Shown here one piece after another: positions 6,685 through 54,272 of a DNA stretch of 64,000 nt. Source of the stretch: Calditrichaceae bacterium (lineage in GTDB: Bacteria; Calditrichota; Calditrichia; Calditrichales; JBFXGD01); assembly GCA_050173015.1 (NCBI GenBank), contig JBFXLE010000012.1, positions 40,745 through 104,744 of the forward strand, in the 5' to 3' direction. Under the pieces are notes generated by a model. The model searched no databases, had not been told where the DNA came from, and worked only from the letters and a program-made list of their open reading frames with translations. Each line of letters starts with the position of its first letter. Within the stretch, counting starts at the first letter, position 1. The position numbers and the translations under genes are program-made.

Positions 6685-6702
6685 GGAAACCCCCTTGTTA
6701 AA

Positions 6703-31022: not shown

Positions 31023-31054
31023 TTCAGTTACTCCGTTGGCTATTAATTGTCATA

Positions 31055-32230: not shown

Positions 32231-32258
32231 AAATCATTCTCTTTCATAAAAGTAACTG

Positions 32259-33062: not shown

Positions 33063-33087
33063 CCGGATATTTTATCCTGAAAAGAAG

Positions 33088-33118
33088 ATAGCGGAACAGC
33101 AGTTGACCGTTCCGCTAT
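33088..33118 (-). terminator. Intra-cluster hairpin or terminator
   Basis: ATAGCGGAAC...GTTCCGCTAT, followed by CTTCTTTT on the minus strand. Confidence 0.6.
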
Positions 33119-33128
33119 AAATATAAGG

Positions 33129-33725: not shown

Positions 33726-33828
33726 GATACTTCTCCTGTGATTGATTGAACAATATAGGTATTAACTAAAATCTTAACCTTTTAAATTTATTTCCTTAAC
33801 CTAAACAATATTCCTTCTTTAAGAAATT

Positions 33829-34872
33829 TTAGATTGAACGGATATATTCCATAAATTGTTTAAAAAATTGCTGATCAAGCTCTTTTTTCAGGGTAGTCAT
33901 CATTTTTTCATAGGCCTGATCTTTGGAAATACCCATGGTACGATTCGCATAGTTGAATGTTTTTAGAGTGAACTGATTAATATTGTCTTTAACATCCAAC
34001 TCCAGCCGCCAGTTGTTGCCGCTTACATCGTTCCTTCCCAAATTGGCCGGAGAAAAAATAAAACGGTAAATAATATCAAAATCAGCGGCTTGATTCTCAA
34101 CGATTTTAAATCCGATTTTTCCGACAATCTCCTTAATATAAGGGGCGGCTTTCTCGCTCTGCGCGCCATCCGGATTTAAACGGACAGTAATCGTTGAGAG
34201 CAGTTTTACTTTTTCGTTCACTATTTGGCTTACGGGAACGGGAGACAAGATGGTTTCACCGGTCACGGAGATAATTTTGAATTGTGATAATAAGAGCTCA
34301 TTCACATCCATAAGATCCGATGCTCTCATCAGATACGCGAATTTGACAAGTTTATTTTCATTTGCGGTGTATTGGGAATAGTAATCGTTTACCAGTTCAT
34401 AATTTTCTTCTATTTCCTGCTGATATAATTCTTCCGTATCCAGCCGGTTCAGGTAAGCCAGAACGTAATAAAGACCTTCAGCGGATGAAAAATAGGATTT
34501 ATCAATCGTAATGTTCTTGAGCGCCTGGTTGCTTTTAACATTTGTTTTGTTAATGATCTCCGCGGTTGCGGTAACCCCCTGTTTGTTTTCATAATAATTT
34601 TGGAGTACTGTTTCGTCTACAAAAACATTTGATTGGAAAACTTTGGAGATACTTCCGATGGCGTTATTTTCTGCATTAGCGCGCGTGTCGCCGCTTCCGA
34701 TTCCCACGATATATCTCGATGCGGGATATGAATTATAAGGATGATCAATCCAGTCGGGAATCATGTCATCGGTAGTAATGTTTTTATGCGCTTTCGGCGC
34801 CGCGCAGGAAGATAATATTATAAAACCGCAAAGTATGGTCAGTATCCACAAGAGTTTGAAACTATGCATCAT
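33829..34872 (-). CDS. LPP20-family lipoprotein
   Basis: Lipobox LSSC; PDWI, YIVGIGSG....AENNA...IS..F. Confidence 0.75.
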   Translation of the reverse strand: MMHSFKLLWILTILCGFIILSSCAAPKAHKNITTDDMIPDWIDHPYNSYPASRYIVGIGSGDTRANAENNAIGSISKVFQSNVFVDETVLQNYYENKQGVTATAEIINKTNVKSNQALKNITIDKSYFSSAEGLYYVLAYLNRLDTEELYQQEIEENYELVNDYYSQYTANENKLVKFAYLMRASDLMDVNELLLSQFKIISVTGETILSPVPVSQIVNEKVKLLSTITVRLNPDGAQSEKAAPYIKEIVGKIGFKIVENQAADFDIIYRFIFSPANLGRNDVSGNNWRLELDVKDNINQFTLKTFNYANRTMGISKDQAYEKMMTTLKKELDQQFFKQFMEYIRSI

Positions 34873-34880
34873 GTTGCCCT

Positions 34881-36305
34881 TTAGTTTAATGAAACCGCGT
34901 CGATCAGGTTAAAACCATTATGAACAACTGTGTATTGTTCTATCGATTTTGATTGAATTATGGATCCATAGCTGTTTAAAAAATTAATGGTGATGTTATG
35001 AACTCCCGGATCGATATCAAATTCGCCTATATAGCATTGATTTGGCATTGTTCTCCAGCAGCGCAGATCCGCGTTCTCTGTAGCGTCCACCCCCACGTCC
35101 ACCGCCGCATTCAGTAAGGTAGTAAAAAATCCGTTGGAACCGGTTTCCTTCTTGATTTTTTCTTTTGCTTTTGCGGCAGCCAGCCCCTTTGTCACGGTCC
35201 TAAGGATAGTTTTGAAATAAATAATGTCCTTTTTTTGCTCGAAGGTATGAATAGCAATTTTCCCCATATCTTCCAGTAGATCCAGATTGCCTAAATACAC
35301 TCCGTCTGCCATGATCTCGATTCGGCTTATGGCGGACTCGGCAGGCTTGAGTACAGGCAAGGAAAATTTAAAATGAAAACCGGGCTTCATTCCGGGAAAA
35401 GCAATGTTAGGGAGGGGAATGGGAACATCCAGCTCGCTCACTCCAACAGCGTCATCATAAGTTGTAATCAAGCCGCCCACCGGTTCTTTCGTGGGCGCGA
35501 GTCCTGTGAATGCGATAATGTTTAATGCGGACCTGTCATTTTGCTGGACATGCAGTTCATCACCGGAAGGCTCGAAATAGAATTTGTTTTTGACCGCATC
35601 GGGGATATTATGATCGTAGATATGAGTATTTTCATCCCAGGCGGTTTTTAATTTTTGCAGTGAAATTCGGCAATTATCATATTCACCATCAGCGCTGAAT
35701 ATCAGATAGCTGAGATAATGAGTTAAGACGTCGTCATAAAACTTATTTTTACTTGTCTGAATTTCAACCTTTGATTTTCCAGATTTATTCATATCGGTGA
35801 CAAGTTTGTCGTATTTGTCGGCTAGCGCGCGCAATTTATCGTTGACTCGCTTCGTTTCCACATAAGCGTCGTCAAATTTACCTAAATTCAGATAGTTCAG
35901 GGATTTGAAGATATTGATATAAATATTCTCATAAATTTCACCGGAGTAGTCCAATATATTATCATTCAGAAGAAGAGAACCGGCAGCTTTTGATATGCTT
36001 TTTGTAAACAGCTCTTCCATGGCCAATTCAGCTTTCTCGAAAGCATTATTACTTTTTTCGTACTCTCCGTTAAAGTACAATACCGCTCCCTTATCAAGAT
36101 AATAAAGCACACGGTCCTTTTTAGAATATTTCCCTGACTTTTTGGCATTATCAATTTTCTTGACGGCGTTTTCAAAATTGCCGGTGTGCAAATCCATCAT
36201 GATCGGTTCATAATGTTCCAACTGAGTCATGGTGCTCGCGCAACCGACAATTAATAAAAATGTTAGAATATAATGAAACCACTTCCTGTTGATCATGTAC
36301 ATCAT
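34881..36305 (-). CDS. COG3014-like TPR lipoprotein
   Basis: Lipobox VGC; LYYLDKG, Y.KSN..F..AE, NDN..DY.GE.YE, LNYL, A.VE, ADLRCWRTMP. Confidence 0.8.
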   Translation of the reverse strand: MMYMINRKWFHYILTFLLIVGCASTMTQLEHYEPIMMDLHTGNFENAVKKIDNAKKSGKYSKKDRVLYYLDKGAVLYFNGEYEKSNNAFEKAELAMEELFTKSISKAAGSLLLNDNILDYSGEIYENIYINIFKSLNYLNLGKFDDAYVETKRVNDKLRALADKYDKLVTDMNKSGKSKVEIQTSKNKFYDDVLTHYLSYLIFSADGEYDNCRISLQKLKTAWDENTHIYDHNIPDAVKNKFYFEPSGDELHVQQNDRSALNIIAFTGLAPTKEPVGGLITTYDDAVGVSELDVPIPLPNIAFPGMKPGFHFKFSLPVLKPAESAISRIEIMADGVYLGNLDLLEDMGKIAIHTFEQKKDIIYFKTILRTVTKGLAAAKAKEKIKKETGSNGFFTTLLNAAVDVGVDATENADLRCWRTMPNQCYIGEFDIDPGVHNITINFLNSYGSIIQSKSIEQYTVVHNGFNLIDAVSLN

Positions 36306-36381
36306 TCCTAATCTATCTCACCTTAGCCGGATTCTGGTTAACAAAAACATCGCCGGGTGAATCATTACTTGCTTTTGCCGG

Positions 36382-37017
36382 TTACCATTTGTAACGGTTT
36401 TGTTCGATCATCTTTTTGATTTTTTTATCGCCTATCCACACTTTCAGATTCTTCTCCAGGTGAATAAGTTCCAGATTAACCTGATAATAAACGGCTTTCT
36501 GACCTTCGAAAGAATCAACAATGGTATTTATACTGCCCTGAAGCATGTAGTCGGCGCCGGTTTCATTGGCAAGTTGTTTTGCCGTTTCCAGAGATGAAAA
36601 ACTTTGCTGATCGAGTCGTTCTTTCCGAATTTCTTCACGTTCTTTTTCGGATGCGACAAAACTGATCTGTCCGGAATTGATTAATTCTTTTTCAATGTCT
36701 TTTATGAATAAATCCACCGGAATATGTTCGCTGCTTTTGTTACGAATACTTCCAACAATAACAACGGGTTTTTCATCATTCAGATCCACATATTCGAGTA
36801 ACCATGGTTTTGAAAGAAGATCACGGATCATGGCTTCCGCGGTAAGCCGGGAATCAGTATCATTCCAACGTCCGCTCAGATCCGAAGTTTGATCCGCGGA
36901 AACACGGGTAACTTTTCGTGAACTCTGGCATTGAATTAGAACCGATGATAATAAAACTAACATGCCTAAAACCAGCATTCTTGATAAAAAACTTCCTGTC
37001 TTTAACATAACGGCCAC
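36382..37017 (-). CDS. LpoB-like (PBP activator / CsgG-TolB_N fold) lipoprotein
   Basis: Cys after a hydrophobic leader; DLSGRWNDTD, I.NKSSEHI, GADYML.G.I, YY.V.L.L.....N..VW...K.IKK. Confidence 0.8.
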   Translation of the reverse strand: MAVMLKTGSFLSRMLVLGMLVLLSSVLIQCQSSRKVTRVSADQTSDLSGRWNDTDSRLTAEAMIRDLLSKPWLLEYVDLNDEKPVVIVGSIRNKSSEHIPVDLFIKDIEKELINSGQISFVASEKEREEIRKERLDQQSFSSLETAKQLANETGADYMLQGSINTIVDSFEGQKAVYYQVNLELIHLEKNLKVWIGDKKIKKMIEQNRYKW

Positions 37018-37136
37018 CTTATAATTAGTAAATAATTCTCTGAACTTTTCTCAGGATCTACATTTTACACTACAAAAATATCAAAACAAATCCAAAAAGA
37101 ATAATTTTAAAGAACGGAAAAACACGAAAATAGTTT

Positions 37137-38951
37137 CTATTTATAGATCTTAAAATTAGCGGTTTTTATTAAAGAATCCTCATCCCATTCGTTGGGCTGC
37201 CAGGCCCTCACATAGATAAGAGGATCCTTTTCGGTGAAATCAATCAATAGAAACAGATATCCTTCATCAGAGTAGGTGGTTGAATAATAACTCTGACGCA
37301 TTTCCACTCCATAAACCCCCTCGGTACTGTTCTTCTTTATAATGTCAAATGATCCGAAGTCAAGAAATATATCTTTTTGAAGGTTAAATACTTGTTCCTG
37401 TCTTTTAAGATAATGCTTTTTTGTCAGACGTACATATTCGTAATCAGGCTGATTAGTAAATTTCTGATAATTAACCATATTATCAGGCAATTTCACCGGA
37501 GTAATTTTACGACCAACAAGGATAAGCGCTTCATCAGCGAACATCAAATCCACCGTTTCAATATCACGGGTCTGGTAAGCCGTACGATACTTTTCAACAA
37601 ACTTAATAATATCCTGTCTGTTTTCCCAATCATTGCCGTATTTTGCCTGTTCGGAGAAATGCCGGTAAAGATTTTCTGAAATACTAAGATTAAAGTCGAT
37701 TAAAATTCCTTTATCTGAAAAATCAAGCACTAAATATTCTGTTGATTGTTTGTTAATACCAGGGTAATGATGAAGCATACGTATTTTACGTAATTCATAT
37801 CCGGAAGAGGTTTTGAAGATCCCGCCTTCAATATTATGCGTGGCGGGTTCCGCGGAATTGTATCTCAGATAATTGATGATCTTGTGGTTTAGAAAAGGAT
37901 CATTAGAATATTTTTCATTAATCATCGACTTATCATTTTTTGAAAGAAGATCTAAAAATTCAGAAGCGGACTTCAAGATTGTCGGTTCGACAAGAATATC
38001 TTTTTCCAGGGTAAGATTCATATTCCATTTATTGGATGCGCCGGAAGTTTGGACTTGCCCAGACTTGACTTTCTGATTGAGATCGACGTTTTTTGCGGAA
38101 TTAAATGTGGGCAGGTTTACCACATTCCATAGTTCACCGACCACATTATATTCCTGACGGGATTCATAATAGGCGTATTTTATGAATAATTTTAAGGATT
38201 CAAAGTTGGTGCTGGCTCCAAGCAGTCGAAATGTCGCGATTCCGTCTCTTCCTTCAACTGCAACCTGGCTAGTTCCGTCCCAAAAAGTGAAATCAATAAG
38301 AGATACGGCAATTCCGTTCGAAGTAATATGAAGTGTTATTTCACGCTCCATGTCAGAGATTTTTTTGTCACCGGCAAAAGTAAATTTTAAATCAAGAAGA
38401 ATCCGGTTAATACGCGCGGGCAGTTCTGTCGTATAATTAATATCCTGATATACAACGCTTTCATCAGGTAATGACTGGACAAGCAAGAGAGCATAGTAAT
38501 TCAGCTTTAACGCGAATGCAGTATTATGATTTAATGCATTTAATTCGGCTTTACGCGCGATTTCAGAAATCAGTTTTTTGCGCTCTTCAAAAATCTGAAA
38601 AACTTCCTTCTTGTCAAGGTAACAAAACGTTTCTATCTCACCGTTGGCCAGGGGCTTTTTTATCGTGTTTACGTTTTGAAGTGTCGCGGCGCTGTGAGTA
38701 CGTATGATGGATTTGACAGACTCATCGAGTCCGGCCGCGTTTTCAATAATTTTGCTTTCAAAAGATTTTGCTACCCTAACGGCGATTTGCTCGGTCAGTT
38801 CTTCCAACGCGCGGTCACGGGATTCTCTGGTGTCATGGGCCACTCCGGAACCGTAATAGTAATTTCCACTATTAATAACTTGTTTTTTATCAATTTGCTG
38901 AGCAAATAGTAAAGGTGTAATCAAAAAGATACTGAAGAAAATGATCCGCAC
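37137..38951 (-). CDS. Exported protein with N-terminal LPP20-like and C-terminal NTF2-like domains
   Basis: Signal peptide; YYGSG......A..AL..L..QI.V.V; FVEKYRTAY..RDI.....F.D.ALI..G; YSDEGYLFL..DF...P.I.VR.WQP. Confidence 0.65.
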   Translation of the reverse strand: MRIIFFSIFLITPLLFAQQIDKKQVINSGNYYYGSGVAHDTRESRDRALEELTEQIAVRVAKSFESKIIENAAGLDESVKSIIRTHSAATLQNVNTIKKPLANGEIETFCYLDKKEVFQIFEERKKLISEIARKAELNALNHNTAFALKLNYYALLLVQSLPDESVVYQDINYTTELPARINRILLDLKFTFAGDKKISDMEREITLHITSNGIAVSLIDFTFWDGTSQVAVEGRDGIATFRLLGASTNFESLKLFIKYAYYESRQEYNVVGELWNVVNLPTFNSAKNVDLNQKVKSGQVQTSGASNKWNMNLTLEKDILVEPTILKSASEFLDLLSKNDKSMINEKYSNDPFLNHKIINYLRYNSAEPATHNIEGGIFKTSSGYELRKIRMLHHYPGINKQSTEYLVLDFSDKGILIDFNLSISENLYRHFSEQAKYGNDWENRQDIIKFVEKYRTAYQTRDIETVDLMFADEALILVGRKITPVKLPDNMVNYQKFTNQPDYEYVRLTKKHYLKRQEQVFNLQKDIFLDFGSFDIIKKNSTEGVYGVEMRQSYYSTTYSDEGYLFLLIDFTEKDPLIYVRAWQPNEWDEDSLIKTANFKIYK

Positions 38952-39283
38952 GTTCTGACTCCATTCTTGAACGAATTAACCTAAAATATATAAACCGATA
39001 TCTGCTGAATGATGTAAAATTTCATTGATTTTTTAAGAAACGCCGCCTGATGCCATAATCAATTTATATTTTATCATCTGAGTGCCTATAGACCTTAGTA
39101 TCATTTGAAAGGGAAAATCAGATCAAATATAATGGATTGTAAAATTTGAATCAATCGGATTCTTTTAACCATCGATTTGATGTGAATTTTCCGAGACTAA
39201 AATTCTTTACAAAACATCTATAGATTATACGATCTAATCCCTAATTTATTTACACTTTAGGATGGGCAATCCTATATTTATCA

Positions 39284-41098
39284 TTACTTGTTCGTTACTT
39301 TTTTAGACGGCCCGCCGCCAAACAAAACACCAAATTGAAGATACGCGCTTTCCTTTATGTCATGATCATCACGATATTGCTGATACACAGCTTTCAGGAA
39401 AAAATTATAACCTAACTGGATTCTGAGATCCGCGTAATAACCATAGGTTGTTTGTTTGATCTTATCCACCCGGTCACCATCCAGTTCATTGTAAAAATAG
39501 TTTTCTCCGATAAACGCGCCGGCAGACGGATAGAGTGTTTCCCACAATACAAATGGAGTAAATCCAAGATAACCGTTCCAGCTATAGGTAACCAGACTAT
39601 CTTTTTCGACAGAGGATGTGTTCAAATTTGTTGTTTTAAATCTAAAACTGCCGCCTATCGTAAACGGATTCAAATAAACAGAAATATCCCCGATGTAGCC
39701 GTAGTCATCAAGCGGATCAGATATTTCATCGGATTGTGTGATTTCATTCAGCATCTCAGGGGGCAATTGCCAGTAATATCCGCCGAAAGAAATGAGTAAT
39801 CCGTCCGAAACATCGGAAATCCGTTCATTACCAAAGGCGGTCAGACGGAAGAAACGATTTCTTGTTTTAACAAGTTTATAATCACATTCTTTGCCTCGTG
39901 AATCAATGGAAAAGGATTTGTTTTTTGTATCATAGCCTTCTTTTTCTATACGGATTGAAAATTTTCCGGGTTCCAGTTCCAGCTCATATATGGGAATGGC
40001 GCCCATGTAACGGTTATCAATATAAATACCGGCTCCTTCTGTTCCCTTTACTGTGAGCAGTCCATTTGGTGATGGCGAGACCTGCAGATTCAGATCGTAG
40101 TCCCCGGTAACGTCAATATTAAGTGAATCGGGACGATGACGCCGCTTACGGGCTTCAAGTTGATACCGTCCGGCCGGGACTTTTCGTTTAAGAGGTGTCG
40201 AGCCGATGTAATTGTTATCCAGATAAATTTCGGATTCAGGGACATTGCTTTCAATAATTAAAGTACTCTCTTTACGGAGAAGATTTACCTGAATAGGTAC
40301 CGATTTCTCGGGATCATCATTCGGTATTATTTCCATGGCATAAGTAAAAGGATGATAGTAAGGTTTTTCCAGACGCAGAAAAGCCAGGCCTTCGGGAACC
40401 GCGATAGGCAAATCAGGACTGAATGGCGCTTCTTTATCATTGATGTATAAGCGCGCGTCATTTTGTAGAATAGAAATGGTGACATAGCCAAATGTTGGTG
40501 TGAGCGTCACTTCTTCGTTTACGGTTTTACCCTCCTGTATTTTTATAAATATTTCACGACGGACATAGCCTTCTTTGGTGATGATAAATTTCCATGTCTG
40601 CGCGCTCAGATTTTCAAAACGGTGGGGACTGATCTGGTTAAGGCCGGGCATTCCGTCAATTTGTATAGTGGCGCCGGCGGGTTGGGTCTTTAAAATTAGA
40701 TGCCCTTTGCGCGAATTATACTTTGAATCAGCGGAAATCTTTATCACAAATACCGCGCGGGGTGCTAACTGAATACCAGCTTCCGAAAAAATGATTTGCA
40801 TTGGCTGAAAACCGGTGTGTAATATTTCCAGCACACGCTCATCCGGGGACAAATATATGATATCGCGTCCCGGTTGATCATCCACTTTAACTACGCCGTT
40901 ATACGCGTCATAACTGAATCCATCCATGTCGGATATGATCCGGATAGCGGCGCAGAACCGGCCGTTCTCGTCTTTGATTCCAGTCATTTCATCAGAAGAC
41001 TTTTCAGCTTTGCCTACTATTTGAAGTTGAGAGAGATTTTGAGCCTGAAGAAACGCAGATACCAGTAAAATAGCCAGTAACATCCTTGTCATGAGCAT
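39284..41098 (-). CDS. PEGA-repeat exported protein with a C-terminal beta-strand (barrel-like) domain
   Basis: Signal peptide; about four PEGA units (TQPAGATIQIDG, SNVPESEIYLDN..IG.TPL, GAGIYIDN); amphipathic aromatic strands at the C-terminus. Confidence 0.8.
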   Translation of the reverse strand: MLMTRMLLAILLVSAFLQAQNLSQLQIVGKAEKSSDEMTGIKDENGRFCAAIRIISDMDGFSYDAYNGVVKVDDQPGRDIIYLSPDERVLEILHTGFQPMQIIFSEAGIQLAPRAVFVIKISADSKYNSRKGHLILKTQPAGATIQIDGMPGLNQISPHRFENLSAQTWKFIITKEGYVRREIFIKIQEGKTVNEEVTLTPTFGYVTISILQNDARLYINDKEAPFSPDLPIAVPEGLAFLRLEKPYYHPFTYAMEIIPNDDPEKSVPIQVNLLRKESTLIIESNVPESEIYLDNNYIGSTPLKRKVPAGRYQLEARKRRHRPDSLNIDVTGDYDLNLQVSPSPNGLLTVKGTEGAGIYIDNRYMGAIPIYELELEPGKFSIRIEKEGYDTKNKSFSIDSRGKECDYKLVKTRNRFFRLTAFGNERISDVSDGLLISFGGYYWQLPPEMLNEITQSDEISDPLDDYGYIGDISVYLNPFTIGGSFRFKTTNLNTSSVEKDSLVTYSWNGYLGFTPFVLWETLYPSAGAFIGENYFYNELDGDRVDKIKQTTYGYYADLRIQLGYNFFLKAVYQQYRDDHDIKESAYLQFGVLFGGGPSKKVTNK

Positions 41099-42077: not shown

Positions 42078-42211
42078 ATTCTTACTTCCTACTTCTTACT
42101 TAAGGCTAAGGCACTAATTTCCTGTTCTTACTCTTTTTTCTTTTTTCTTTTATCTTTTGTCTTAATTTCCTACTTCCTACTTCCTACTTCTTAATTCTTA
42201 CTTCCTACTTC
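42078..42211 (-). repeat. Heptamer repeat tract (GAAGTAR and AAGAHAA units)
   Basis: CTACTTC/TTACTTC units plus pyrimidine-rich TTTTATC/TTTTGTC units on the plus strand; overlaps the end of the cytochrome gene. Confidence 0.85.
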
Positions 42212-43501
42212 TCCTCCGTACTGCTTTGTCTCATGGCATCCCGAATAGCACATTTTTCCATCTTCGGTTTCCCCAATACGCGCCGGCATTTTCCATTTTC
42301 CAAATGACACTTTTCCGGCAATCAGATGCTCCTGATTTGATCCGTGCATATCGTGACAAAGCACACAGTTGCGGCCTTTATCTCGCTTGACATGCAGATA
42401 ATGGAGATTTTGTTTTCCATCGCTGAATCCAGACGCGTCCATTCCCGGGTCTTCAATAAGTGAGGTTTCATGACAGTTGAAACAAACCGCGAAGGATTCT
42501 GAATCGCCCGGAGCGTATGCGCTATTGGGAAAGTCAGCGTTTAGCAGGCAGGTAAATTCGGAAGAATGGGGAAGATGGCAGGATTCACATCCACCATCCA
42601 TAGCCGGGGCATGGATAAATTCTTTTTCTTCCAAACGATTTTTGATTTTTCCCGCTCTTGAATACTCAACCGGCAGGGAGGTGTCATGACATGTAAGACA
42701 AAGCTCCTCTCTCTGCTGAGTCAGTAATCCATTCATCTCCGATGCGTGAGCTTTATGACAGTCAAGACAGGCTCGTCCATCGTTTATCGCTTTATGCACT
42801 GAAATGTTATCGGATTGGTCTTCATGGCATTCATAGCACTGTCCGGGAACCGGCATCTTCAGAAGTGACGTGTATTGAGATGTGTGAGTGTGATGACAAT
42901 CCGAACATTCCCCCTCATAAGCGGGATGCACATTATTCAATGCCAGCTCATCTTTCTGCTCCTCATGACAGTCGAAACAAAGCTGCGGTGGCTCCTTTTT
43001 CAGAAAAGCTGCATAATCTGATTGATGCGGATTATGACACTCTGTGCATTGGTTGTTTTCCGCCGGCGGATGATTTACCGCCTTTGGATTATTATATAGA
43101 TCATGGCATTTACCGCAAATCTCCCCCTGGTCGGCGGCGATCAGTAGTGCCGCGTTGTTGGAACTGTGGACATCATGACAGGCGGTGCATTCACCTGCGA
43201 CAACCGGAGCATGAACATCATCTTTTTCATGTTTTGAATCATGACAATCATAACAGAGATAGGGCATTTCGTTTAACAGCGAAAATTCATTACCCTCTGA
43301 GCCGGGATGAATAAATCCGTTTGATTCATGACAGGAAGCGCAGTCATCTTCAACGGGCGGATGAATATGCGATCGGTCCAGATATGACCCGTGACATCCT
43401 CCCGCGGTGCAGTCTGATTCCAGTTCTGCCTCTTGAGCAAAAAGAGGAGACTGATGAAAGAATAGTATCACGGCGAAATAAAATATGATCCGAATGGTCA
43501 T
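42191..43501 (-). CDS. Periplasmic multiheme cytochrome c (doubled-CXXCH family), 13 CXXCH plus CX4CH and CX3CH
   Basis: Signal peptide from ATG 43501; repeated H.P....C..CH..H.S....LL......C..CH units. Confidence 0.9.
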   Translation of the reverse strand: MTIRIIFYFAVILFFHQSPLFAQEAELESDCTAGGCHGSYLDRSHIHPPVEDDCASCHESNGFIHPGSEGNEFSLLNEMPYLCYDCHDSKHEKDDVHAPVVAGECTACHDVHSSNNAALLIAADQGEICGKCHDLYNNPKAVNHPPAENNQCTECHNPHQSDYAAFLKKEPPQLCFDCHEEQKDELALNNVHPAYEGECSDCHHTHTSQYTSLLKMPVPGQCYECHEDQSDNISVHKAINDGRACLDCHKAHASEMNGLLTQQREELCLTCHDTSLPVEYSRAGKIKNRLEEKEFIHAPAMDGGCESCHLPHSSEFTCLLNADFPNSAYAPGDSESFAVCFNCHETSLIEDPGMDASGFSDGKQNLHYLHVKRDKGRNCVLCHDMHGSNQEHLIAGKVSFGKWKMPARIGETEDGKMCYSGCHETKQYGGEVGSKN

Positions 43502-43511
43502 GAGTTCATCC

Positions 43512-45479
43512 TTAGAATTTTCTTTCAACACGCATGAATCCGGCATTGTATGTTATCTCTTCCCCGGAAAAATCGCGCCGGTAAGTTTCTAGTCCCACAG
43601 TCAAATACATCTGTCTGAATCGTGTTGTAAATTCACCCCGCAGCGTGGCAAGATTCAGATCAATGCCTCTTCCATCCTGAAAACGGTAGCTTGTTTCCAG
43701 ACTGATTTGCGAGATACGGGAAAGACGATACAAAAACCGGCCGGTTAAATCCCTGAATTTCTGGTCTTCCTCGTCTTCTGTCAATGTATAATTCCGGATA
43801 TTTCCTGAGAGAGAAACATTTAGCCTGCTAAACAAATATCTGTTAAAAGTGATATAATACCGGACTGAATGATAGGGAACGATATTGCTGTTGTAGTCGT
43901 CAATTTCTACCCCGCCGGAAATCGGTCCTTTTGTCAATCGTGTGCCAAATACTCTCTCGGAAACCGTTTTGAGTACGGCTAAATCAGATCCTTCCGGATT
44001 CTCAATATCCTGTTCATATGAACGAAAATATAACTCAGCAAGCTGATTAAAAACGGTTAATCTCGCTCCGAATGCATTACTGAGTATATCGTATTGGTAT
44101 GAGGTCTGCCGTGTTACCGTGTAATCTACGAGAATTTTTGTCCCATCGGGGATTTGGCCACCAGGCAGTCGCTGAATTTCCAGGAAATCGCCTCGTGTAA
44201 TCAGTACATAATCCAGATTCTCCTGATAAGGAATCAACCCTGTTTCATCGGTTACCACAACACTTGCCGGATCCGCGTAAGGATTTTCCAGCAATATTGT
44301 TTGCCCGTCAAACAGAGTAACGGCCTCATTGATAATTCTTGACGGGCTTGGCAGGCTGTTCCGGTTTTCATTTCGCTTCCTGAGCTCGTAGTCGATGGAA
44401 AGGTTGCCGGTCGGGATTTTTTTTATATAGTTGAACCCGATTGTGCCCGTGTTGGTGTACTGATTAAATCCGCTCTGATTAAGATCGATATATTCATAAT
44501 AGGCAAAACTTCTAAGGCTCCGGTATAACTGATGCTCAACTCTACCGGAAATATTATGCTGGTCGGAGCTGAATTCCTTTTGATCAAAAGAAGCATATCG
44601 GTAATCACCAGAAAAATCCAGATTATACGGTAATACGAATCTGATATTCTCAGTGGCGGTTAACCGGTCAAACTCCTCGCTTCCGGTCTGCTTATAATAC
44701 CAGATCAGAGAATTGAGATTATTATTGCGGTTCTTATCCAGGAAGAAATTATCCCGCAGATTGACGCTCGATATTTTATTGTGAATGGATGCGTTTTGCG
44801 CGTATTCACGTGAATAATCTTCATATGAATAAGCAAAACGATGGTCATCATAGCGGCTGAATGATTTGCTGAATTCGGATCTAAAATTATCACGAGTATT
44901 TACAAAATCACGCCCGGTTTGCAATTCCTTTTGTTCCCAGTTTTCATGAGAATAGCTAAATGTTACCGGGAGAATGTCGTTGCGATAGGCAGCTCCTCCG
45001 CCAATATCTGTTCTGTAGTTCTCGACATTGGTCAGGAATTCGCGGTTCACATAACTGTGGCTAAAATTCGTAAACAAGTTAAATGTAAAAGGGCGCTGTT
45101 TAAAAAATGATGTATGGAGATTTAATTTTTCACCTGTTTTTGTTTCAGTGCGGTTTGGAACAACCAAAAACTGATCCCGCCGGATGCCGGGATTGAAGTC
45201 AAAATCGGCATTTATCAACATAAAATTGGGGTGCCAGACATAACTTCTTGATCTTAATAAAATCTCTCCGGAAAAAATCGTGGATTCAGGCTTATCAGAT
45301 AAACCGGATGGATAAACTGTTTCCTGCGAACGGAATTCACTTTCCATAATGACGGAACCGTTCAGCGATTGCAGGCGCCATGCCCCAATCGAATAAAGTT
45401 CACTGTCCTGTCCGGAAGAAGGAGACAGCAACATCAAAAGAAGAGCAGGGATTAAACCAATTATTTTCCGTAACGTCAT
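43512..45479 (-). CDS. Large outer-membrane beta-barrel protein (putative cytochrome-associated porin)
   Basis: Signal peptide, long run of alternating aromatic/polar beta strands, C-terminal Phe (VERKF); sits between cytochrome genes. Confidence 0.75.
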   Translation of the reverse strand: MTLRKIIGLIPALLLMLLSPSSGQDSELYSIGAWRLQSLNGSVIMESEFRSQETVYPSGLSDKPESTIFSGEILLRSRSYVWHPNFMLINADFDFNPGIRRDQFLVVPNRTETKTGEKLNLHTSFFKQRPFTFNLFTNFSHSYVNREFLTNVENYRTDIGGGAAYRNDILPVTFSYSHENWEQKELQTGRDFVNTRDNFRSEFSKSFSRYDDHRFAYSYEDYSREYAQNASIHNKISSVNLRDNFFLDKNRNNNLNSLIWYYKQTGSEEFDRLTATENIRFVLPYNLDFSGDYRYASFDQKEFSSDQHNISGRVEHQLYRSLRSFAYYEYIDLNQSGFNQYTNTGTIGFNYIKKIPTGNLSIDYELRKRNENRNSLPSPSRIINEAVTLFDGQTILLENPYADPASVVVTDETGLIPYQENLDYVLITRGDFLEIQRLPGGQIPDGTKILVDYTVTRQTSYQYDILSNAFGARLTVFNQLAELYFRSYEQDIENPEGSDLAVLKTVSERVFGTRLTKGPISGGVEIDDYNSNIVPYHSVRYYITFNRYLFSRLNVSLSGNIRNYTLTEDEEDQKFRDLTGRFLYRLSRISQISLETSYRFQDGRGIDLNLATLRGEFTTRFRQMYLTVGLETYRRDFSGEEITYNAGFMRVERKF

Positions 45480-45516
45480 TTTTTTACCTTAAAAATGATA
45501 AAACCAATCGGTGGAA

Positions 45517-46125
45517 TTACCTGAATAAATAAGCATCTTCACCGCCGTGCGGATTATGACAATCCAGACAGCTAACTTCGTTTATATCCTGGTGAGCTTC
45601 ATTTTTAAAAACGTCCCCGCTCTGATGACAGAAAAGACATAACTCCTGTCCGTTCCGAATCAAAAGATGTTCATTTTTTGACAGGTGTGGATTATGACAT
45701 TCCGTACAAAATCCGGCCCCCACCGGTCCATGCAGCGCCTCGTAATTATCGTTAAAGTCATCATGACACTGATAGCAAAGGCCCGGTTGCTCATCGAGCA
45801 GGGCATTTCCCTTTTCAGGGACATGGCAGGCATCACATGATTTTTCGGCATAAACAGGGTGCACGGTCATTTTCGGGCGAACGGGATTTGCAGAAGCAGG
45901 TGTACCTGCAACAGGGACAGATGCCAGGACCGTATCAACTGTCGCCGATTGTTCCGCTTCGGGGCCCGGCACTCCGTCAAAAAAGGTAGTAAGAACTTTA
46001 TGACGGCTTTCCGGATGACAGGCAGCCAAAAGCGCGATGACCGTCAATATAAAGAGGTGTGTAATATGAGTTCGCAAGGCTATTCTCTGAAATTTGGTTT
46101 TTGAACAATTTTTCAGATAACACAT
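45517..46125 (-). CDS. Pentaheme cytochrome c lipoprotein (start uncertain)
   Basis: Lipobox LLAAC, FFDGVP, and hemes CDACH, CYQCH, CTECH, CLFCH, CLDCH. Confidence 0.88.
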   Translation of the reverse strand: MCYLKNCSKTKFQRIALRTHITHLFILTVIALLAACHPESRHKVLTTFFDGVPGPEAEQSATVDTVLASVPVAGTPASANPVRPKMTVHPVYAEKSCDACHVPEKGNALLDEQPGLCYQCHDDFNDNYEALHGPVGAGFCTECHNPHLSKNEHLLIRNGQELCLFCHQSGDVFKNEAHQDINEVSCLDCHNPHGGEDAYLFR

Positions 46126-46151
46126 TGTTCGCGTTTATATGCCGTTAAATA

Positions 46152-47225
46152 TCATTCCTTTACATCAACAAATCCATAGACGTTGATCTTATCAGGTCCA
46201 TACTGATTGGTTACAAAAATCAGATATTGCAATTCGAAACCGGGATGAACATATTTCCGGAAATACTCAAGATTGTCATAATCTATAATCACTTTGGCGG
46301 GCAGCCACATATCACCGGGTCCTTTATAGCTTCCTCCGAAAAACATCAGTAATTGATCTTCTTCATTAAATAGCTGGACATTTTCAAAGCCCGCGTCCAC
46401 CACGTATAAATTGGATTGTTTATCTACCGATATTCCCTTAGGGCGTACAAATTGCCCGGCATTTTTTCCGTAGCTGCCTATGGATCGAATGAATTCGCCT
46501 TCGGTCGTATAAACTTTTACGCGGAAATCACCAAAATCACTCACATAAACCTGATCATTTTTTACGAATAGATTTGTCGGGGAGTACAGGTTGCTTTCCC
46601 CGGTATTCTCATCATTGGGGATCGATCGAATCAGTTTATGGTCTTCTTTTGAAAACGCCAGAATCTTATGGCCTTTGATATCGCTGACCCAGATTAAATT
46701 ATTAGTGACAAAAACATCAGTCGGCCTCAGGATGTCCTCGCTGCCAAAACTGTTCACAAACTTCCCGCTTTCATCAAATATAACGATATCGCCTCTTTCA
46801 GAATCAGCCACATAAACGCGTCCGTCAACATCCACAAAAGAGTTGATCGGTTTCTTTAACTGGCCCTTTCCGGCCGGTTTCAAATATTCAAAAGAACGGG
46901 TATTCAGATCGATAATTTCGAGTCCGCCAAACATGGTGTCGCAGACATATATTCTGCCGCGGTATATAGACAGTCCATACGGTTTGACGATGGACCGGTT
47001 TTCTTCTTCGCCCAGCACATAGCGGGCAAACGCGGAACGACGTCCGGTGATATCGCTTGAACTGCTGATACGGGTTAAAAACTGGATTCTCGTAGTAGCC
47101 GGAGGCGCGGGATAGATGATGACGTTATCGTCGTTCACAGGCCTGTTGAAGGTCCTGTTGCAAGAAAGCGCCATCATCACTATAAAAAAAGACAGAACAA
47201 TTAACTGAATTAAATTCTTCATCAA
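46152..47225 (-). CDS. NHL-repeat beta-propeller lipoprotein
   Basis: Lipobox ALSC; YPAPP...RIQFL; repeats such as KP......GRVYVADS and GQFVRPKGISVD...LYVVD. Confidence 0.88.
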   Translation of the reverse strand: MMKNLIQLIVLSFFIVMMALSCNRTFNRPVNDDNVIIYPAPPATTRIQFLTRISSSSDITGRRSAFARYVLGEEENRSIVKPYGLSIYRGRIYVCDTMFGGLEIIDLNTRSFEYLKPAGKGQLKKPINSFVDVDGRVYVADSERGDIVIFDESGKFVNSFGSEDILRPTDVFVTNNLIWVSDIKGHKILAFSKEDHKLIRSIPNDENTGESNLYSPTNLFVKNDQVYVSDFGDFRVKVYTTEGEFIRSIGSYGKNAGQFVRPKGISVDKQSNLYVVDAGFENVQLFNEEDQLLMFFGGSYKGPGDMWLPAKVIIDYDNLEYFRKYVHPGFELQYLIFVTNQYGPDKINVYGFVDVKE

Positions 47226-47310
47226 ATTTTATCCGTATTCAATAAATTAGACTCAAAACCGGTAATAATTACAATTCAAATAAACCGCGGCGAATAATGT
47301 CTTCAACCGT

Positions 47311-47934
47311 TTATTTATTATGACAGGTCAGACACAAGGCGCTCGACGAATTGGATATGATGAGCAACTTGCTGAATCCCTGGCTGTTATGTACATCATG
47401 ACAGGAGGCGCACTGCACTTTACCGCCGATTAACATGTCATTGCTAATGGTGCCGCCCATGCCTGAATTCGCGGTGGTCGGATCGTATAATCCGCCGTCT
47501 GAGTTTGCCAGCGCCGCGTCATAAGTAAAAGAAACCGGGTGATCATCACTAAGATCTGTTCCCACAAGGCTGTTTCCGGTAATAAAATGGCTTCCGCCTG
47601 TTTGGCCGCCGTAATTGTCAACGGCTATGGTGCCGTCATGACAGCTCATACAGAGTTTTGATGAAGCATCCGGTTGGCCCACAGTGGCGTTCATGGACGC
47701 GCTGCTGTAAGGAGTAAATGTGGCGGAGGTCATCTCATGATTCCATAACGGGGCATCGCTGACGGATACATCGGCATTGTGAGTAGTATGGCAGACGATG
47801 CAAATCTGGTCGCTGGTATTCCAGGCCGCGGATGAAAAATCGTGGGCGGATCCGACAATGGACTGCGCCAACGCGGTGCCGCTGAGCACCAGGGTAAAAG
47901 TTACAGCAAAGCAAAAACCTAATAATCGTTTCAT
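47311..47934 (-). CDS. Tetraheme cytochrome c, OmcE-like
   Basis: Signal peptide (ALA-Q) from ATG 47934; SIVGSAHDFS, DQICIVCHTTHNA, PLWNH, CMSCHDG, GTDLSDDHPV, CASCHDVHN, LCLTCHNK. Confidence 0.85.
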   Translation of the reverse strand: MKRLLGFCFAVTFTLVLSGTALAQSIVGSAHDFSSAAWNTSDQICIVCHTTHNADVSVSDAPLWNHEMTSATFTPYSSASMNATVGQPDASSKLCMSCHDGTIAVDNYGGQTGGSHFITGNSLVGTDLSDDHPVSFTYDAALANSDGGLYDPTTANSGMGGTISNDMLIGGKVQCASCHDVHNSQGFSKLLIISNSSSALCLTCHNK

Positions 47935-47984
47935 GACTGTTCCTTTCAATTGTTTTATTGCCCTAAAATGTGAAAATCTTCCTG

Positions 47985-49679
47985 CTAATAAGTTTTTGGA
48001 TCATGATCTTCTCCGTGACATACTAAATAACATGACCCTCTGGAGGATCCCTGATCAATAAACTCCAGTCTTGTACCGGAGGGGAATACAACGGAAACAT
48101 CAAAATTAATAAGATGTGTGTTATTGGTCGCATTTCCCTGTAAACTGCTTATTCCATGCGGATCGTGACATACGTTGCAGGGGGTATCTTCAGCAACGAT
48201 ATGCCTCCAGTGTACTTTTCTCGCAAAACTGCCGCTGCTGTTGATGATTGTATTTCGGTTGTGGCATTCATAGCATAAGCGGTAATTGTCATAAGATTCG
48301 GTTGTATAATCCGCGGTAACATACTGATATTTTAATATCTGCGGGTATATGGATCCGTGAGGTCCCGCCGGCGCGCCCGTTCCGTCGCTGGCATGACAAT
48401 GGGTGCAGTAAATTATGCTTGATGCTGTGTAAGGTGATATCATCGACAAGACATTTGGATTTTTGCCGACTGCCTCAATCGGGTGGTATGAAGGGTTAGC
48501 CGGATCATATTCAAGACGCGTGTTGGATTGTTCAATCAATCTGATAGTCGGGCTGCCGGGTTTATCGGGACTGTCGGCATGGCATTTATAACACAACTCA
48601 TACTGGTATTGTACCGTTTCGACCGCTGTTCCGTTTGTATTCAATCCGCTTGTGCCGGCAATGAATCCATTGGCGTTTGGCGCGGTGGCTGCTGAGAGTT
48701 TGCTGGAGTGTGGATTATGACAATCTTCGCACTCAACATGTCTGTTCTGGACAGGAATATTTTCTTCCGGATCATGGACACCGGCATAATTGTAAACATC
48801 ATGAATATACGGTTTGGTTGTGATAATTGTCTGAATGTTTTTAGCGGCGACATTTCCGTTATGGCAGTCCAGACAGTTATTCTCTTCCGTGAGTGAATTC
48901 AGCAGACGATCATGACTCTCTGAGTTATGAGGATTATGACAGTTTTCACAGCCGTTTTCCGCCACATTCGCGTAGGGGGTGTGAAACCAGGGATCATTTC
49001 CGGAGCCGTTCCACGTCGCGATTGAATTTTTATGCGATGAATTGACCCAGTCATTTTTCTGATGGCAATAGAGACAAAGATCAGAGTTTTGGTTGGTGGC
49101 GACCAGAAACTGTCCGTATAAATCGACATGCGGATCATGGCAGGAAGTGCATTGAACACGCTCGTTTGCAAGTTTAACCGGCCCGGTAAGAACGGCTGGA
49201 TCGCTTAGTTCACCATCAGCCGCCGATAAAGCGGAATTATATAAAAAGGACACCGGGTGATCATCCGATAAATCGGTGGATAAATTTTTATTACCGGATG
49301 GCATCATCGTAATTCCGCCACTGAATTCTATGGGTGCCGGTTTGCTTAAAACATTACCGAGAGCGATGGTGCCGTCATGACAGGAAAGGCATAATAGTGA
49401 AGCGCCGTCCGGCTGCCCTGGGGAGGCCTGTGTGGTAGAACTGCCGTAAATTGTGTAGGTTAATCCCGGATCTTCACGATTCCATAATGGTTTTCTCGGG
49501 CTGCTCTTATGCGGAGTGTGACAAAAAACGCAGATTTCAGATTCGCTGCTGGCCTTAACTGTTCCCGGGCCGGTGACGGATAAATTATGAACTGAATTCA
49601 CAATTGATTGTGAAAGCGCGATAGATGGAATCATTAATAAAAAGGTCCAGGTTTTCAGTAGCTTATTTTTCATCGGCAT
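47985..49679 (-). CDS. Multiheme cytochrome c (11 CXXCH plus CX3CH) with N-terminal OmcE-like module
   Basis: Signal peptide; the first four hemes are collinear with 47311-47934, followed by eight further heme motifs. Confidence 0.88.
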   Translation of the reverse strand: MPMKNKLLKTWTFLLMIPSIALSQSIVNSVHNLSVTGPGTVKASSESEICVFCHTPHKSSPRKPLWNREDPGLTYTIYGSSTTQASPGQPDGASLLCLSCHDGTIALGNVLSKPAPIEFSGGITMMPSGNKNLSTDLSDDHPVSFLYNSALSAADGELSDPAVLTGPVKLANERVQCTSCHDPHVDLYGQFLVATNQNSDLCLYCHQKNDWVNSSHKNSIATWNGSGNDPWFHTPYANVAENGCENCHNPHNSESHDRLLNSLTEENNCLDCHNGNVAAKNIQTIITTKPYIHDVYNYAGVHDPEENIPVQNRHVECEDCHNPHSSKLSAATAPNANGFIAGTSGLNTNGTAVETVQYQYELCYKCHADSPDKPGSPTIRLIEQSNTRLEYDPANPSYHPIEAVGKNPNVLSMISPYTASSIIYCTHCHASDGTGAPAGPHGSIYPQILKYQYVTADYTTESYDNYRLCYECHNRNTIINSSGSFARKVHWRHIVAEDTPCNVCHDPHGISSLQGNATNNTHLINFDVSVVFPSGTRLEFIDQGSSRGSCYLVCHGEDHDPKTY

Positions 49680-50679
49680 CCTTGTATATCAGTTCAAACA
49701 TCTGTATGCGCGCGTTATAGCTGTCGGCTATGTAGATACGATCCTGGTGATCGATATATATTCCCGACGGAAGCCAGAATTCACCCCGGCCCCGGCCCTG
49801 TTTACCAAAATAATGAAGAAAGTTTCCTTCTTTATCAAAAATCTGGACGGTATGGAAAAGCCCGTCCACCACGTAAATTTGTCCATGTGAGTCAGCAGCG
49901 ATTCCTTTCGGGGCTGAAAAATAGCCGCTGGCGTCGCCGGCTTCACCAAAAATATTCACAAGTTCACCTGATTTATTAAAGACCTGAATCCGAAAATTCA
50001 TTGAGTCAACCACATAGACATTACCCTTATCATCGATGGTGAGATAAGTGGGAAAATTAAATTCAGCGGGCCCGGTTCCGCGTTGTCCAATTATTCTCAG
50101 TAGTTTGCCGGACTTATCCAATACAAGGATACGGTGTTTCCCGGTTTCCGTTACCCATATTTCATTTGAAACATTTGAAAAACCGATTCCCGTCGGTCTG
50201 TCAATTTCTAATGAGGGATTTAATAGACCGGTTTTTCCCATTGTAACATTTTGGACATATATTTGATTGGTTTTTGAATCTGTAAGAAGCAGTGAATTTG
50301 AATCAAACCCGGACATACCGATAAGTGACGGAAAGCCGGTTTGTTTTTCCTGATAAAAGTTTTTGACCTGACCGGAATTTTGATCAATAAATGTCAGGGA
50401 TTTAGCGCCCTGATCGAGTACCCAGATGGAATCAGGATCATCCGCGAAAACTGCCACCGGTCTTATTAACGAGTGGAAATCTTTTCCGAAAATAAAATTA
50501 AACATTAACTTCGTAAAACCGGGCTTACTTTTCAAATCATCAGAAGATGCAAACTGTCCGGTCCATTTAACAGCGTGGGAATCGCTTCCGGAAACTACAG
50601 ACTGATTTTCAACTGCCAGGCTCAGCATTGGAAATATGATCAGAATGGTGAATGATACTAACAGGAAATTCCGTTTCAT
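49663..50679 (-). CDS. NHL-repeat beta-propeller exported protein
   Basis: Signal peptide; RPTGI, FNFPT...D..G.VYVVDSMNFRIQVF, F..PKGIA.DS.G.IYVVD, FWLPSGI.ID...IYIADSYN.RIQ. Confidence 0.9.
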   Translation of the reverse strand: MKRNFLLVSFTILIIFPMLSLAVENQSVVSGSDSHAVKWTGQFASSDDLKSKPGFTKLMFNFIFGKDFHSLIRPVAVFADDPDSIWVLDQGAKSLTFIDQNSGQVKNFYQEKQTGFPSLIGMSGFDSNSLLLTDSKTNQIYVQNVTMGKTGLLNPSLEIDRPTGIGFSNVSNEIWVTETGKHRILVLDKSGKLLRIIGQRGTGPAEFNFPTYLTIDDKGNVYVVDSMNFRIQVFNKSGELVNIFGEAGDASGYFSAPKGIAADSHGQIYVVDGLFHTVQIFDKEGNFLHYFGKQGRGRGEFWLPSGIYIDHQDRIYIADSYNARIQMFELIYKDADEK

Positions 50680-51090
50680 CAGGACAAAATCCTTTTAAGT
50701 ACGTTCATGGGTGCCATGTGAAAAAATATACTTATTTAGACCGATTATCAATTTAATCGTAAAAAAGTTAATTCCTAATGTAAGATAATGGTTAAATTCA
50801 GCCCTTGTATGTGCTCTAAATCAATTTCAGATTGTATATAAAAGTATGACACTTATTCAGTGACATGGAAGATATAAAAAAAAATGGCGGTTGAAAATGA
50901 TTTTTTAAAAAACCTATGCAGGACAGTAATGTCAATGAAGTAATTATAACCCGCGCGGAGAATTGACCGGACAAAAACAATATTCACAAAAAAATTATTT
51001 GTTTCGGAAACTATCCTGTCAATTCCCCGGCGTCAGGTTAATGAGATGATTTGGCGGATATGTCTGATCCGGCATGCCCGGGGAATGAAA

Positions 51091-54063: not shown

Positions 54064-54252
54064 TAAGTAGGAAGTGGGAAGTAGGAAGTAAGAAGTAAGA
54101 AGTAGGAAGTAAGAAATAGGAAGTGAGAAGTAAGAAGTAAGAAGTAAGAAGTAGGAAGTAAGAAGTGGGAAGTAAGAAATAGGAAGTGAGAAGTGGGAAG
54201 TGGGAAGTAGGAAGTAAGAAGTAGGAATTAAGAGATGGGAAGTGGGAAGTAG
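54064..54252 (+). repeat. Tandem heptamer array, 27 units of consensus GAAGTRR
   Basis: 189 bp in unbroken 7-bp register (GAAGTAA, GAAGTAG, GAAGTGG, GAAGTGA, with a few variants). Confidence 0.95.
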
Positions 54253-54272
54253 GGACAAGGCCTGCCTTGTCC
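54249..54272 (+). repeat. GTAG-REP-like palindrome
   Basis: GTAG followed by GGACAAGGC-ct-GCCTTGTCC. Confidence 0.65.

Follow-up and report, generated by a model that had tools for sequence, protein, structure and literature searches.

Can a wiring module built around the cytochrome OmcE be recognised outside Geobacter, and what would it do in a bacterium of another phylum? The question is raised by a 64,000-nucleotide stretch of DNA from a Calditrichaceae bacterium (assembly GCA_050173015.1, contig JBFXLE010000012.1, positions 40,745 to 104,744), hereafter the window. Within it, seven co-directional and tightly packed open reading frames (ORFs), named g1 to g7 in the order of transcription, run on the minus strand from 50679 to 42191 and encode four multihaem cytochromes, two beta-propellers and a predicted outer-membrane barrel (Table 1). 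A sequence-only reading of the window had placed the seven ORFs at these coordinates and in this order, which holds on reanalysis, and had described them as a self-contained module for extracellular electron transfer with a cytochrome nanowire.

The seven genes are likely to be the Calditrichota version of the omcE-type (also uet-type) cluster, which would provide electron transfer across the outer membrane and probably an OmcE-like filament. The proposal of an extracellular electron transfer or nanowire module gains from the OmcE homology, the barrel and the cytochrome c maturation genes of the host. Its implied novelty falls away, since the available passages of two studies describe the same gene set from Desulfuromonadia and four other phyla (PMC13712944) and, as uet, from Tenderiales (10.1101/2022.05.06.490989). 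The window operon is a Calditrichota case of an already described system type.

The OmcE-type subunit and its conserved operon

The assignment is carried first by g3, which matches the OmcE filament chain 7tfs_A of Geobacter sulfurreducens over its full length (query 14-212, chain 9-232; E 8.7e-28). All four CXXCH motifs and all four distal histidines are matched in this alignment, and the OmcE-like character claimed earlier for the tetrahaem protein stands. A further match is found to 9yuq_N, one chain of a 16-chain structure (E 2e-23). Judging from the 16 chains and their 218 amino acids, PDB 9yuq is probably the OmcE bundle structure of Desulfuromonas soudanensis; OmcE bundles have been solved from strain WTL of this species (Petersen et al., mBio 2026; PMC13712944). 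In 50 homologues of g3 the cysteines C50, C53, C100, C103, C180, C183, C206 and C209 and the four motif histidines are invariant, as are the distal histidines H36, H57, H137 and H187, which align to histidines in both 7tfs and 9yuq. The protein therefore shows two features of the OmcE family, namely four CXXCH motifs at the family positions over the full length and four conserved non-motif histidines for bis-His ligation, one of which, in the family, is donated to the neighbouring subunit. OmcS and OmcZ chains are absent from the PDB sequence matches of g2, g3, g5 and g7 at E up to 0.1-1.

The gene neighbourhood of g3 agrees with this assignment. According to the passages available, the smallest omcE clusters always hold two multihaem cytochromes, two beta-propeller lipoproteins, OmcE and a large beta-barrel, and the presence of barrel and propeller is the criterion for nanowire-capable OmcE homologues, which occur in Thermodesulfobacteriota, Pseudomonadota, Aquificota, Campylobacterota and Nitrospirota (PMC13712944). 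In the window, g4 (NHL, lipobox Cys22) lies 85 nucleotides downstream of g3 and the g6 barrel belongs to the same operon, so that an OmcE subunit, two beta-propellers, a large barrel and at least two further multihaem cytochromes are found together in one operon.

Conservation of this gene set was followed in a sample of 128 loci, comprising 48 from a scan with g3 and the best 80 of at least 612 relatives from a scan of species genomes with the g2 alignment; 127 of the 128 have at least one match. The core, written E-n-B-N-F for OmcE-type protein, NHL lipoprotein, barrel, NHL protein and 12-haem protein, is complete in 73 of the 128 loci, from 14 named phyla. The pentahaem lipoprotein (5) accompanies the core in 50 of the 128, and the MtrA-like cytochrome (P) is present too in 34; many incomplete loci are cut by contig ends. 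Relative to the common order E-n-5-B-N-F, that of the window, N-F-E-n-5-B-P, is rotated. Among loci with complete cores the rotated order is seen in Calditrichota (3/3), Ignavibacteriota (5/6), Chlorobiota (1/1) and Bacteroidota (4/12) and is absent from all 47 complete-core loci whose phylum is another or unnamed; in this sample it is confined to phyla of the Fibrobacterota-Chlorobiota-Bacteroidota group. Full clusters are also present in cultured strains, namely Carboxylicivirga marina N1Y132 (L123), Desulforhopalus sp. IMCC35007 (L088) and two Geomonas (L032 and L033), in both of which each of the seven window genes has a homologue.

Relatives of the OmcE-type protein with five CXXCH motifs were seen in Candidatus Thiodiazotropha (L015-L019, L021, L023 and L024). 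They stand alone in L015-L018, with two in L015, and a few kilobases upstream of a complete core in L019, L021, L023 and L024. These proteins fit the class called "5-haem OmcE-like" in the available part of the omcE study (PMC13712944).

The intergenic spacing from g1 to g7 (-17, 35, 85, 26, 37 and -35 nucleotides) fits a single operon, the stop codon of g1 overlapping the start of g2 by the 17 nucleotides. Two starts are likely to lie downstream of those in Table 1. For g3 the likely start is the ATG at 47934 (M6, nearly invariant in the 50 homologues), which would give 207 amino acids; for g7 it is M16, the homologue in the metagenome-assembled genome (MAG) L004 having 440 amino acids. The best sigma-70-like site upstream of g1 is weak evidence for a promoter, and the region as a whole holds 25 such sites against a shuffle mean of 24.3. 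A hairpin of the mRNA-stabilising kind, as after major pilin genes, was not found 3' of g3 (z 0.47), and no terminator-like site is listed between g7 and the next gene.

As had been counted from the sequence, the four cytochromes together hold exactly 33 CXXCH motifs and three wider ones, which are CX3CH at residue 550 of g2, CX3CH at residue 433 of g7 and CX4CH at residue 46 of g7. In the whole genome (4.34 Mb, 54 contigs, 97.5% complete), three or more CXXCH motifs occur in 28 of 11,175 ORFs of at least 60 amino acids, so the concentration in the operon is not due to chance. With Pfam, g1 and g4 are assigned NHL or six-bladed propeller domains, and each of the four cytochromes is assigned doubled-CXXCH domains. 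Visual inspection of the N-terminal sequences served to identify signal peptides and lipoboxes, and all seven N-termini have a basic start followed by a hydrophobic stretch, in keeping with the export earlier proposed for every protein.

Table 1. Features of the operon region in window coordinates
Feature	Coordinates	Strand	Length (aa)	CXXCH motifs	Haem sites	Description
g1	49663..50679	minus	338			Secreted NHL six-bladed beta-propeller; no Cys
g2	47985..49679	minus	564	11	12	12-haem cytochrome: OmcE-like module and octahaem extension
g3	47311..47949	minus	212 (from TTG)	4	4	OmcE-family tetrahaem cytochrome, candidate filament subunit
g4	46152..47225	minus	357			NHL beta-propeller lipoprotein, Cys22
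g5	45517..46125	minus	202	5	5	Pentahaem lipoprotein cytochrome, lipobox LAAC
g6	43512..45479	minus	655			Predicted outer-membrane beta-barrel, C-terminal Phe
g7	42191..43546	minus	451	13	15	15-haem MtrA/DmsE-like cytochrome; signal peptide, no lipobox; candidate periplasmic wire
Sigma-70-like site TTGACA-17-AATAAT	50994..51022	minus				11/12 matches; about 315 nt 5' of g1; weak

Barrel, conduit cytochromes and propellers

The 655-residue protein g6 had been proposed to be a large barrel, and its AlphaFold2 (AF2) model supports this. Built from 17 sequences, the model (predicted local distance difference test, pLDDT, 83.5; predicted template modelling score 0.67) is all-beta, with about 28 strands between residue 34 and the C-terminal Phe; it has no TonB plug domain, the barrel occupying the chain from residue 34 on. 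The sequence has no Pfam family and no PDB sequence match. Foldseek returns large outer-membrane barrels, among them Cir (E 1.9e-8), and gives MtrB (6r2q_B) the best template modelling (TM) score, 0.44. A profile of the 17 g6 homologues matches the barrels of the Geomonas omcE clusters (E 2.6e-42 and 3.2e-37).

A beta domain of 83 amino acids (residues 376-458, window 44106-44354) is inserted in the predicted barrel and is its best conserved part, with 9 of the 12 nearly invariant residues within 385-453. Nothing in Pfam matches the insert at E up to 10. Its look-alikes in the ESM Atlas are phage tail tube/sheath decoration domains (PF27730; TM by query 0.80-0.86), and in NCBIfam the insert region gives a weak match to tail_tube_6XGR (E 8e-7, below the cut-off).

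Could the barrel be an unrelated transporter, beside a purely periplasmic redox module that acts as an electron store or as a reductase of soluble substrates? The best structural matches of the barrel by Z are nutrient transporters, and the barrel is without a family name, both of which would suit such a module. It is nevertheless highly improbable, given that the barrel lies within the conserved core in the 73 loci, always flanked by cytochrome and NHL genes, that it is without a TonB plug domain and that two of its partners are lipoproteins.

The two remaining cytochromes resemble parts of a known conduit. Both g5 and g7 match Paired_CXXCH_1 (E 4.5e-23 and 9e-64, respectively) and the PDB chain 6r2q_A (E 1.9e-12 and 2.7e-12). 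This chain we take to be MtrA, the molecule name in the search tables being evidently mislabelled. Membership of the MtrA/DmsE family was considered for both proteins and rejected, since they fall below the cut-off of TIGR03508 (DmsE-family) at 192.2 bits, g7 reaching 138.3 bits (E 3.1e-40) and g5 48.9 bits; the doubled-CXXCH architecture is shared nonetheless.

These resemblances bear on the question of whether the locus encodes only a porin-cytochrome conduit and no nanowire. In that case a wire like those of Mtr or Pcc systems would be formed by the barrel together with the MtrA-like g7 and the lipoprotein g5, and g3 and g2 would act at the surface as monomers or small oligomers, serving as terminal reductases. 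Besides the likeness of g7 and g5 to 6r2q_A of the Mtr complex, such a conduit is favoured by a match of the C-terminal part of g2 (residues 238-369) to the MtrC/MtrF domain II/IV family (PF22113, E 3.2e-13). It also agrees with the Tenderiales authors, who in the passages available read the same parts mainly as a barrel with inserted cytochromes and treat polymers as a possibility (10.1101/2022.05.06.490989), and with the available account of polymerisation, which has been demonstrated in Geobacter and Desulfuromonas only (PMC13712944). Against it, no ligand of the two solved filament subunits is missing from g3, the N-terminal His36 included, and g3 lies in the gene context used, according to the same partial text, as the criterion for nanowire-capable homologues (PMC13712944). 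An Mtr-like conduit moreover needs neither two dedicated propellers nor two OmcE modules. A conduit alone is thus regarded as distinctly unlikely, and an omcE-type cluster with a probable filament remains the preferred explanation.

The propellers themselves differ in their predicted attachment. In g1 the NHL match (E 1.3e-25) is accompanied by DUF5128, a six-bladed propeller family (E 5.8e-20), and the protein has no cysteine and hence is not a lipoprotein here. The g4 protein matches DUF5128 (E 8.6e-15) and NHL (E 1.5e-13), and at least 90% of 50 homologues share its lipobox Cys22. In the sampled loci a g1-type NHL gene stands directly upstream of the g2-type gene in 96 of 111 cases, and the OmcE-type gene directly upstream of the g4-type gene in 74 of 93. 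Each gene with an OmcE module has its own adjacent NHL gene, and the pairs g1/g2 and g3/g4 would fit a chaperone-like pairing. Prediction of a complex of g4 (residues 23-357), g3 (residues 29-212) and four haems gave no answer for or against such a pairing (score 0.00 in both runs, made without control runs).

The 12-haem fusion protein and a possible mechanism

How a cytochrome filament might be joined to a conduit is a question on which g2 bears most directly. Residues 10-208 match 7tfs_A (E 1.6e-31), better than g3 itself does, and the protein is 40% identical to g3 (89/224, E 5e-46). From these matches, g2 is, at the level of sequence, a complete OmcE-like tetrahaem module (residues 1-208) fused to an octahaem extension (209-564). 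The 11 CXXCH sites are all kept in 31 of 31 homologues. In the same 31 the residues of the CX3CH motif are nearly as well conserved (C554 100%, C550 97%, H555 94%), and 13 non-motif histidines are kept at 97-100%, among them H31, H57, H141 and H184, which correspond to the four distal histidines of g3. A similar arrangement is found in Geomonas oryzae, where a 587-residue cluster cytochrome shares 30% identity with the neighbouring OmcE homologue over about 200 residues (E 8e-23).

Proteins of the g2 type are found under 17 phylum labels. In a FastTree phylogeny of 100 of them the window protein groups with three Calditrichota rows (support 97), and this group is nested in a 12-row set of Ignavibacteriota, Calditrichota and Bacteroidota (support 97). 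On the tree 27 changes of phylum label are required; the smallest possible number is 16 and shuffling gives 64 on average, which suggests that g2 has descended mostly within phyla, with some transfer.

Five gammaproteobacterial loci (L084, L091, L094, L097 and L112) have, downstream of the usual core, an extra NHL gene followed by a gene for a protein with 18-24 CXXCH motifs. Among the seven window proteins the best match of these long proteins is g3 or g2, which suggests that longer cytochromes have been built on the OmcE module in these loci.

A role for g2 as terminal subunit or connector of OmcE-type nanowires can be put forward tentatively, as a candidate function that is possible without being probable. 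Since its N-terminal module keeps H31 and all other ligands, g2 could dock at one end of a g3 polymer, H31 serving as the donor histidine to the haem left open there. H216, the first invariant residue of the extension, might then close the open haem of g2 itself and stop growth, and the octahaem tail might link the fibre to the barrel conduit, at the base, or to a substrate, at the tip. The omcE study expects an anchor to resemble OmcE with one extra histidine and, in the passages available, finds no anchor or tip candidate encoded in omcE operons (PMC13712944). A g2-type protein is present in the Geomonas clusters, and there is one per barrel across at least 14 phyla. A connector role for the OmcE-module fusion is not stated in the available passages of the omcE and uet papers.

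Counting histidines was considered as a test for an anchor. In g2 there are 25 conserved histidines for 12 haems (2n+1). The test was rejected because g3 homologues outside Geobacterales mostly carry nine histidines too: the ninth, H71, is present in 92% of the first set of homologues; g2 and the two solved OmcE chains have Arg there. The 2n+1 argument for g2 as an anchor is accordingly a weak one.

Taken together, the parts suggest the following mechanism. The seven proteins would be exported by Sec and the haems attached by Ccm. Electrons would be taken by g7 from inner-membrane quinol dehydrogenases or from a periplasmic pool, and g7 would reach into or under the g6 barrel, with the pentahaem lipoprotein g5 forming a bridge at the outer membrane. 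The fibre would arise from g3, polymerising by cross-subunit ligation of histidine to haem as in OmcE. It would be joined to the conduit by g2, whose OmcE module may dock on the g3 polymer and whose octahaem tail may contact the conduit or the substrate. One propeller gene lies beside each OmcE-module gene, and the two propellers would hold or deliver these poorly structured cytochromes during assembly.

Several points weigh against this reading of the operon. The identity of g3 to the OmcE of Geobacterales is about 33-36%, and the available text of the omcE study notes that OmcE-like tetrahaem genes are widely distributed and that not all of their products need polymerise (PMC13712944). The physiology of such filaments is itself disputed, as in a paper titled "Lack of physiological evidence for cytochrome filaments..." (PMC11077965, seen in part). 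The modelled g6 can be called a very large barrel, but a specific likeness to porins of the MtrB/PioB type does not stand out: in the aligner VIA, used for a second look, TonB-dependent transporter barrels (Z about 18) outscore MtrB (Z 14.3, rank 43), and no specific family stands out. The AF2 model of g2, from a 27-row alignment, has a mean pLDDT of 48.8, too poor for a fold search. Finally, the related uet cluster has been linked, in the passages available, to electron uptake and not to export (10.1101/2022.05.06.490989).

Host, direction of electron flow and relation to known systems

The host is no Geobacter, as the sequence-only reading had surmised. The best matches of the acetyl-CoA synthetase in the window are to Calditrichota, Caldithrix and Calditrichia MAGs (79-83%), and the Calditrichaceae MAG L004 is collinear with the window over 16.5 kb at 82-84% nucleotide identity, flanks included. 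The cluster is single-copy in its own genome. Haem maturation of System I is encoded on contig C24 (CcmF, CcmC and CcmE), consistent with the cytochrome c maturation that the proposal presupposed, and no match to ResB or System II was found in the genome. That the window lacks genes for quinol oxidases and haem maturation, as noted before, is confirmed by Pfam scans of 40 other ORFs. Since the genome encodes its haem maturation and quinol-side functions outside the window, to call the module self-contained was too strong. Two 500-residue cytochromes with an NrfH-type domain are encoded outside the window and could feed electrons from quinol.

Which way would the electrons flow? The window holds genes typical of a heterotroph, for acetyl-CoA synthetase, proline dehydrogenase and a protein of glycerol-3-phosphate oxidase type, and no RuBisCO is found in the 97.5% complete genome. 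As the genome is without RuBisCO and looks heterotrophic, outward flow, that is, respiration of solids or of partner cells, is favoured on these gene contents. The same hardware might instead serve mainly for uptake: as suggested for uet in Candidatus Tenderia electrophaga, electrons drawn from a syntrophic partner, from a cathode-like surface or from Fe(II) minerals would enter the periplasm and go on to an oxidase. In favour of uptake, a multihaem wire can in principle run either way, and the genome has four genes of the haem-copper oxidase family. The uet cluster further has the same kinds of parts and, according to the available text, is expressed on biocathodes (10.1101/2022.05.06.490989). 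Uptake is regarded as unlikely, if as an alternative to be taken seriously: besides the heterotrophic gene content, the uet-specific cupredoxin UetF, the trihaem c7 proteins UetD/E/G and the PPIase (peptidyl-prolyl isomerase) UetB are absent from the operon, and OmcE, the closest experimentally studied relative by sequence, serves the reduction of Fe(III) oxide in the passages available (PMC12307469). The outward-directed omcE-type cluster is retained as the better account.

The genes flanking the operon have no link to electron transfer; they encode an SRPBCC protein, a secreted protein of 141 amino acids, a ClC channel and a block of LPP20, LpoB and PEGA lipoproteins. This block belongs to a run of nine genes for secreted proteins or lipoproteins (LPP20, LpoB-like, PEGA and CarboxypepD_reg) at 29553-41098 on the minus strand, directly downstream of the operon region. 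Five of the nine have no Pfam family, and the part down to 37401 is collinear in MAG L004. Between the ClC channel gene and an M14 peptidase gene, 27 tandem copies of the heptamer AAGTAGG (80% matches) occupy 54065-54253 and read as a spurious low-complexity ORF. At 3842-6720 on the minus strand, genes for LexA, a second S24 peptidase (UmuD-like) and a Y-family DNA polymerase adjoin in what looks like an SOS mutagenesis cassette.

Elsewhere in the genome, multihaem genes occur as a pair at C18:84416-87573 (19 and 20 CXXCH), as five ORFs at C15:33678-42349 (3 to 19) and as a pair at C4:108119-111540 (10 and 11). At E 1e-3 these groups include no paralogue of the window cluster, except for a weak match of g5 (E 6.6e-4) to a 932-residue ORF of the C15 run. 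DNA nearly identical to the operon, with at least half of the sampled words, is present in 8 listed public runs; they come from 5 studies and carry the labels landfill, marine or plain metagenome. No RNA run is listed, and one of the 8 may be the source of this assembly. Calditrichota are common in marine sediments and in landfill-type habitats, and the operon offers a concrete candidate route by which they could exchange electrons with solids or partner cells.

Of the systems described so far, the omcE cluster of Desulfuromonadia is matched by a tetrahaem subunit with the same four CXXCH motifs and four distal histidines, and by two NHL/beta-propeller genes, a large beta-barrel and further multihaem cytochromes in one cluster. 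The window cluster differs in its phylum, its rotated gene order, the absence of a lipobox Cys from g1 and the absence of an adjacent block of glycosylation genes. The Desulfuromonadia site between purHDE/resB and ffh, given in the available text of the omcE study (PMC13712944), is not that of the window. Calditrich, Planctomyc and Bacteroid do not occur in the text of that study. No paper was found that names both Calditrich and OmcE, or, since 2024, both UetJ and OmcE. Papers that co-mention OmcE and Ignavibacteri have one OmcE mention each among the matches listed, in the text available. In its accessible part, a peat preprint reports that Acidobacteriota and Verrucomicrobiota have conserved gene clusters that include "OmcE-like" cytochromes (10.64898/2026.05.27.727921).

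The uet cluster, as described in the passages available, has a tetrahaem cytochrome (UetA), a barrel predicted to have 28 strands (UetC), two NHL proteins (UetH and UetI) and a protein with 11 CXXCH motifs that is predicted to be extracellular (UetJ) (10.1101/2022.05.06.490989). By parts list alone, and not by sequence, UetA corresponds to g3, UetC to g6 with its roughly 28 predicted strands, UetH and UetI to g4 and g1, and UetJ to g2. The window lacks the PPIase, the cupredoxin, the trihaem c7 proteins and the adjacent ccsAB of uet, and adds the pentahaem lipoprotein and the MtrA-like 15-haem protein; the uet cluster, in addition, has been proposed for uptake.

With MtrCAB of Shewanella (6r2q) and the Pcc and Ext conduits of Geobacter the operon shares the general plan of a large barrel, a periplasmic multihaem wire and a lipoprotein cytochrome. 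It differs from MtrCAB in that g7 scores below the DmsE/MtrA cut-off (138 vs 192 bits) and g6 has no Pfam family, with about 28 modelled strands against 26 for MtrB in the passages available (10.1101/2022.05.06.490989); Mtr systems, for their part, have neither NHL propellers nor OmcE modules. The paper on the OetABI conduits of syntrophic sulfate reducers makes no mention of OmcE or NHL (PMC10553843). In the OmcS machinery (Shen et al. 2025, as cited in the available part of PMC13712944), the filament is mounted by a porin-like outer-membrane protein and by accessory proteins whose genes adjoin that of the filament. The window shares the idea of a porin-like protein with accessory genes and differs in that none of its cytochromes matched OmcS or OmcZ chains.

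Such loci could help to answer how cytochrome filaments start, are anchored and become charged. In this respect the most interesting point of the locus is the role of the conserved 12-haem OmcE fusion and of the paired propeller and cytochrome genes, all of them candidates open to testing. With its core complete in 14 named phyla of the sample, the OmcE-type wiring module appears not as a speciality of Geobacter but as an old and widely shared cassette.

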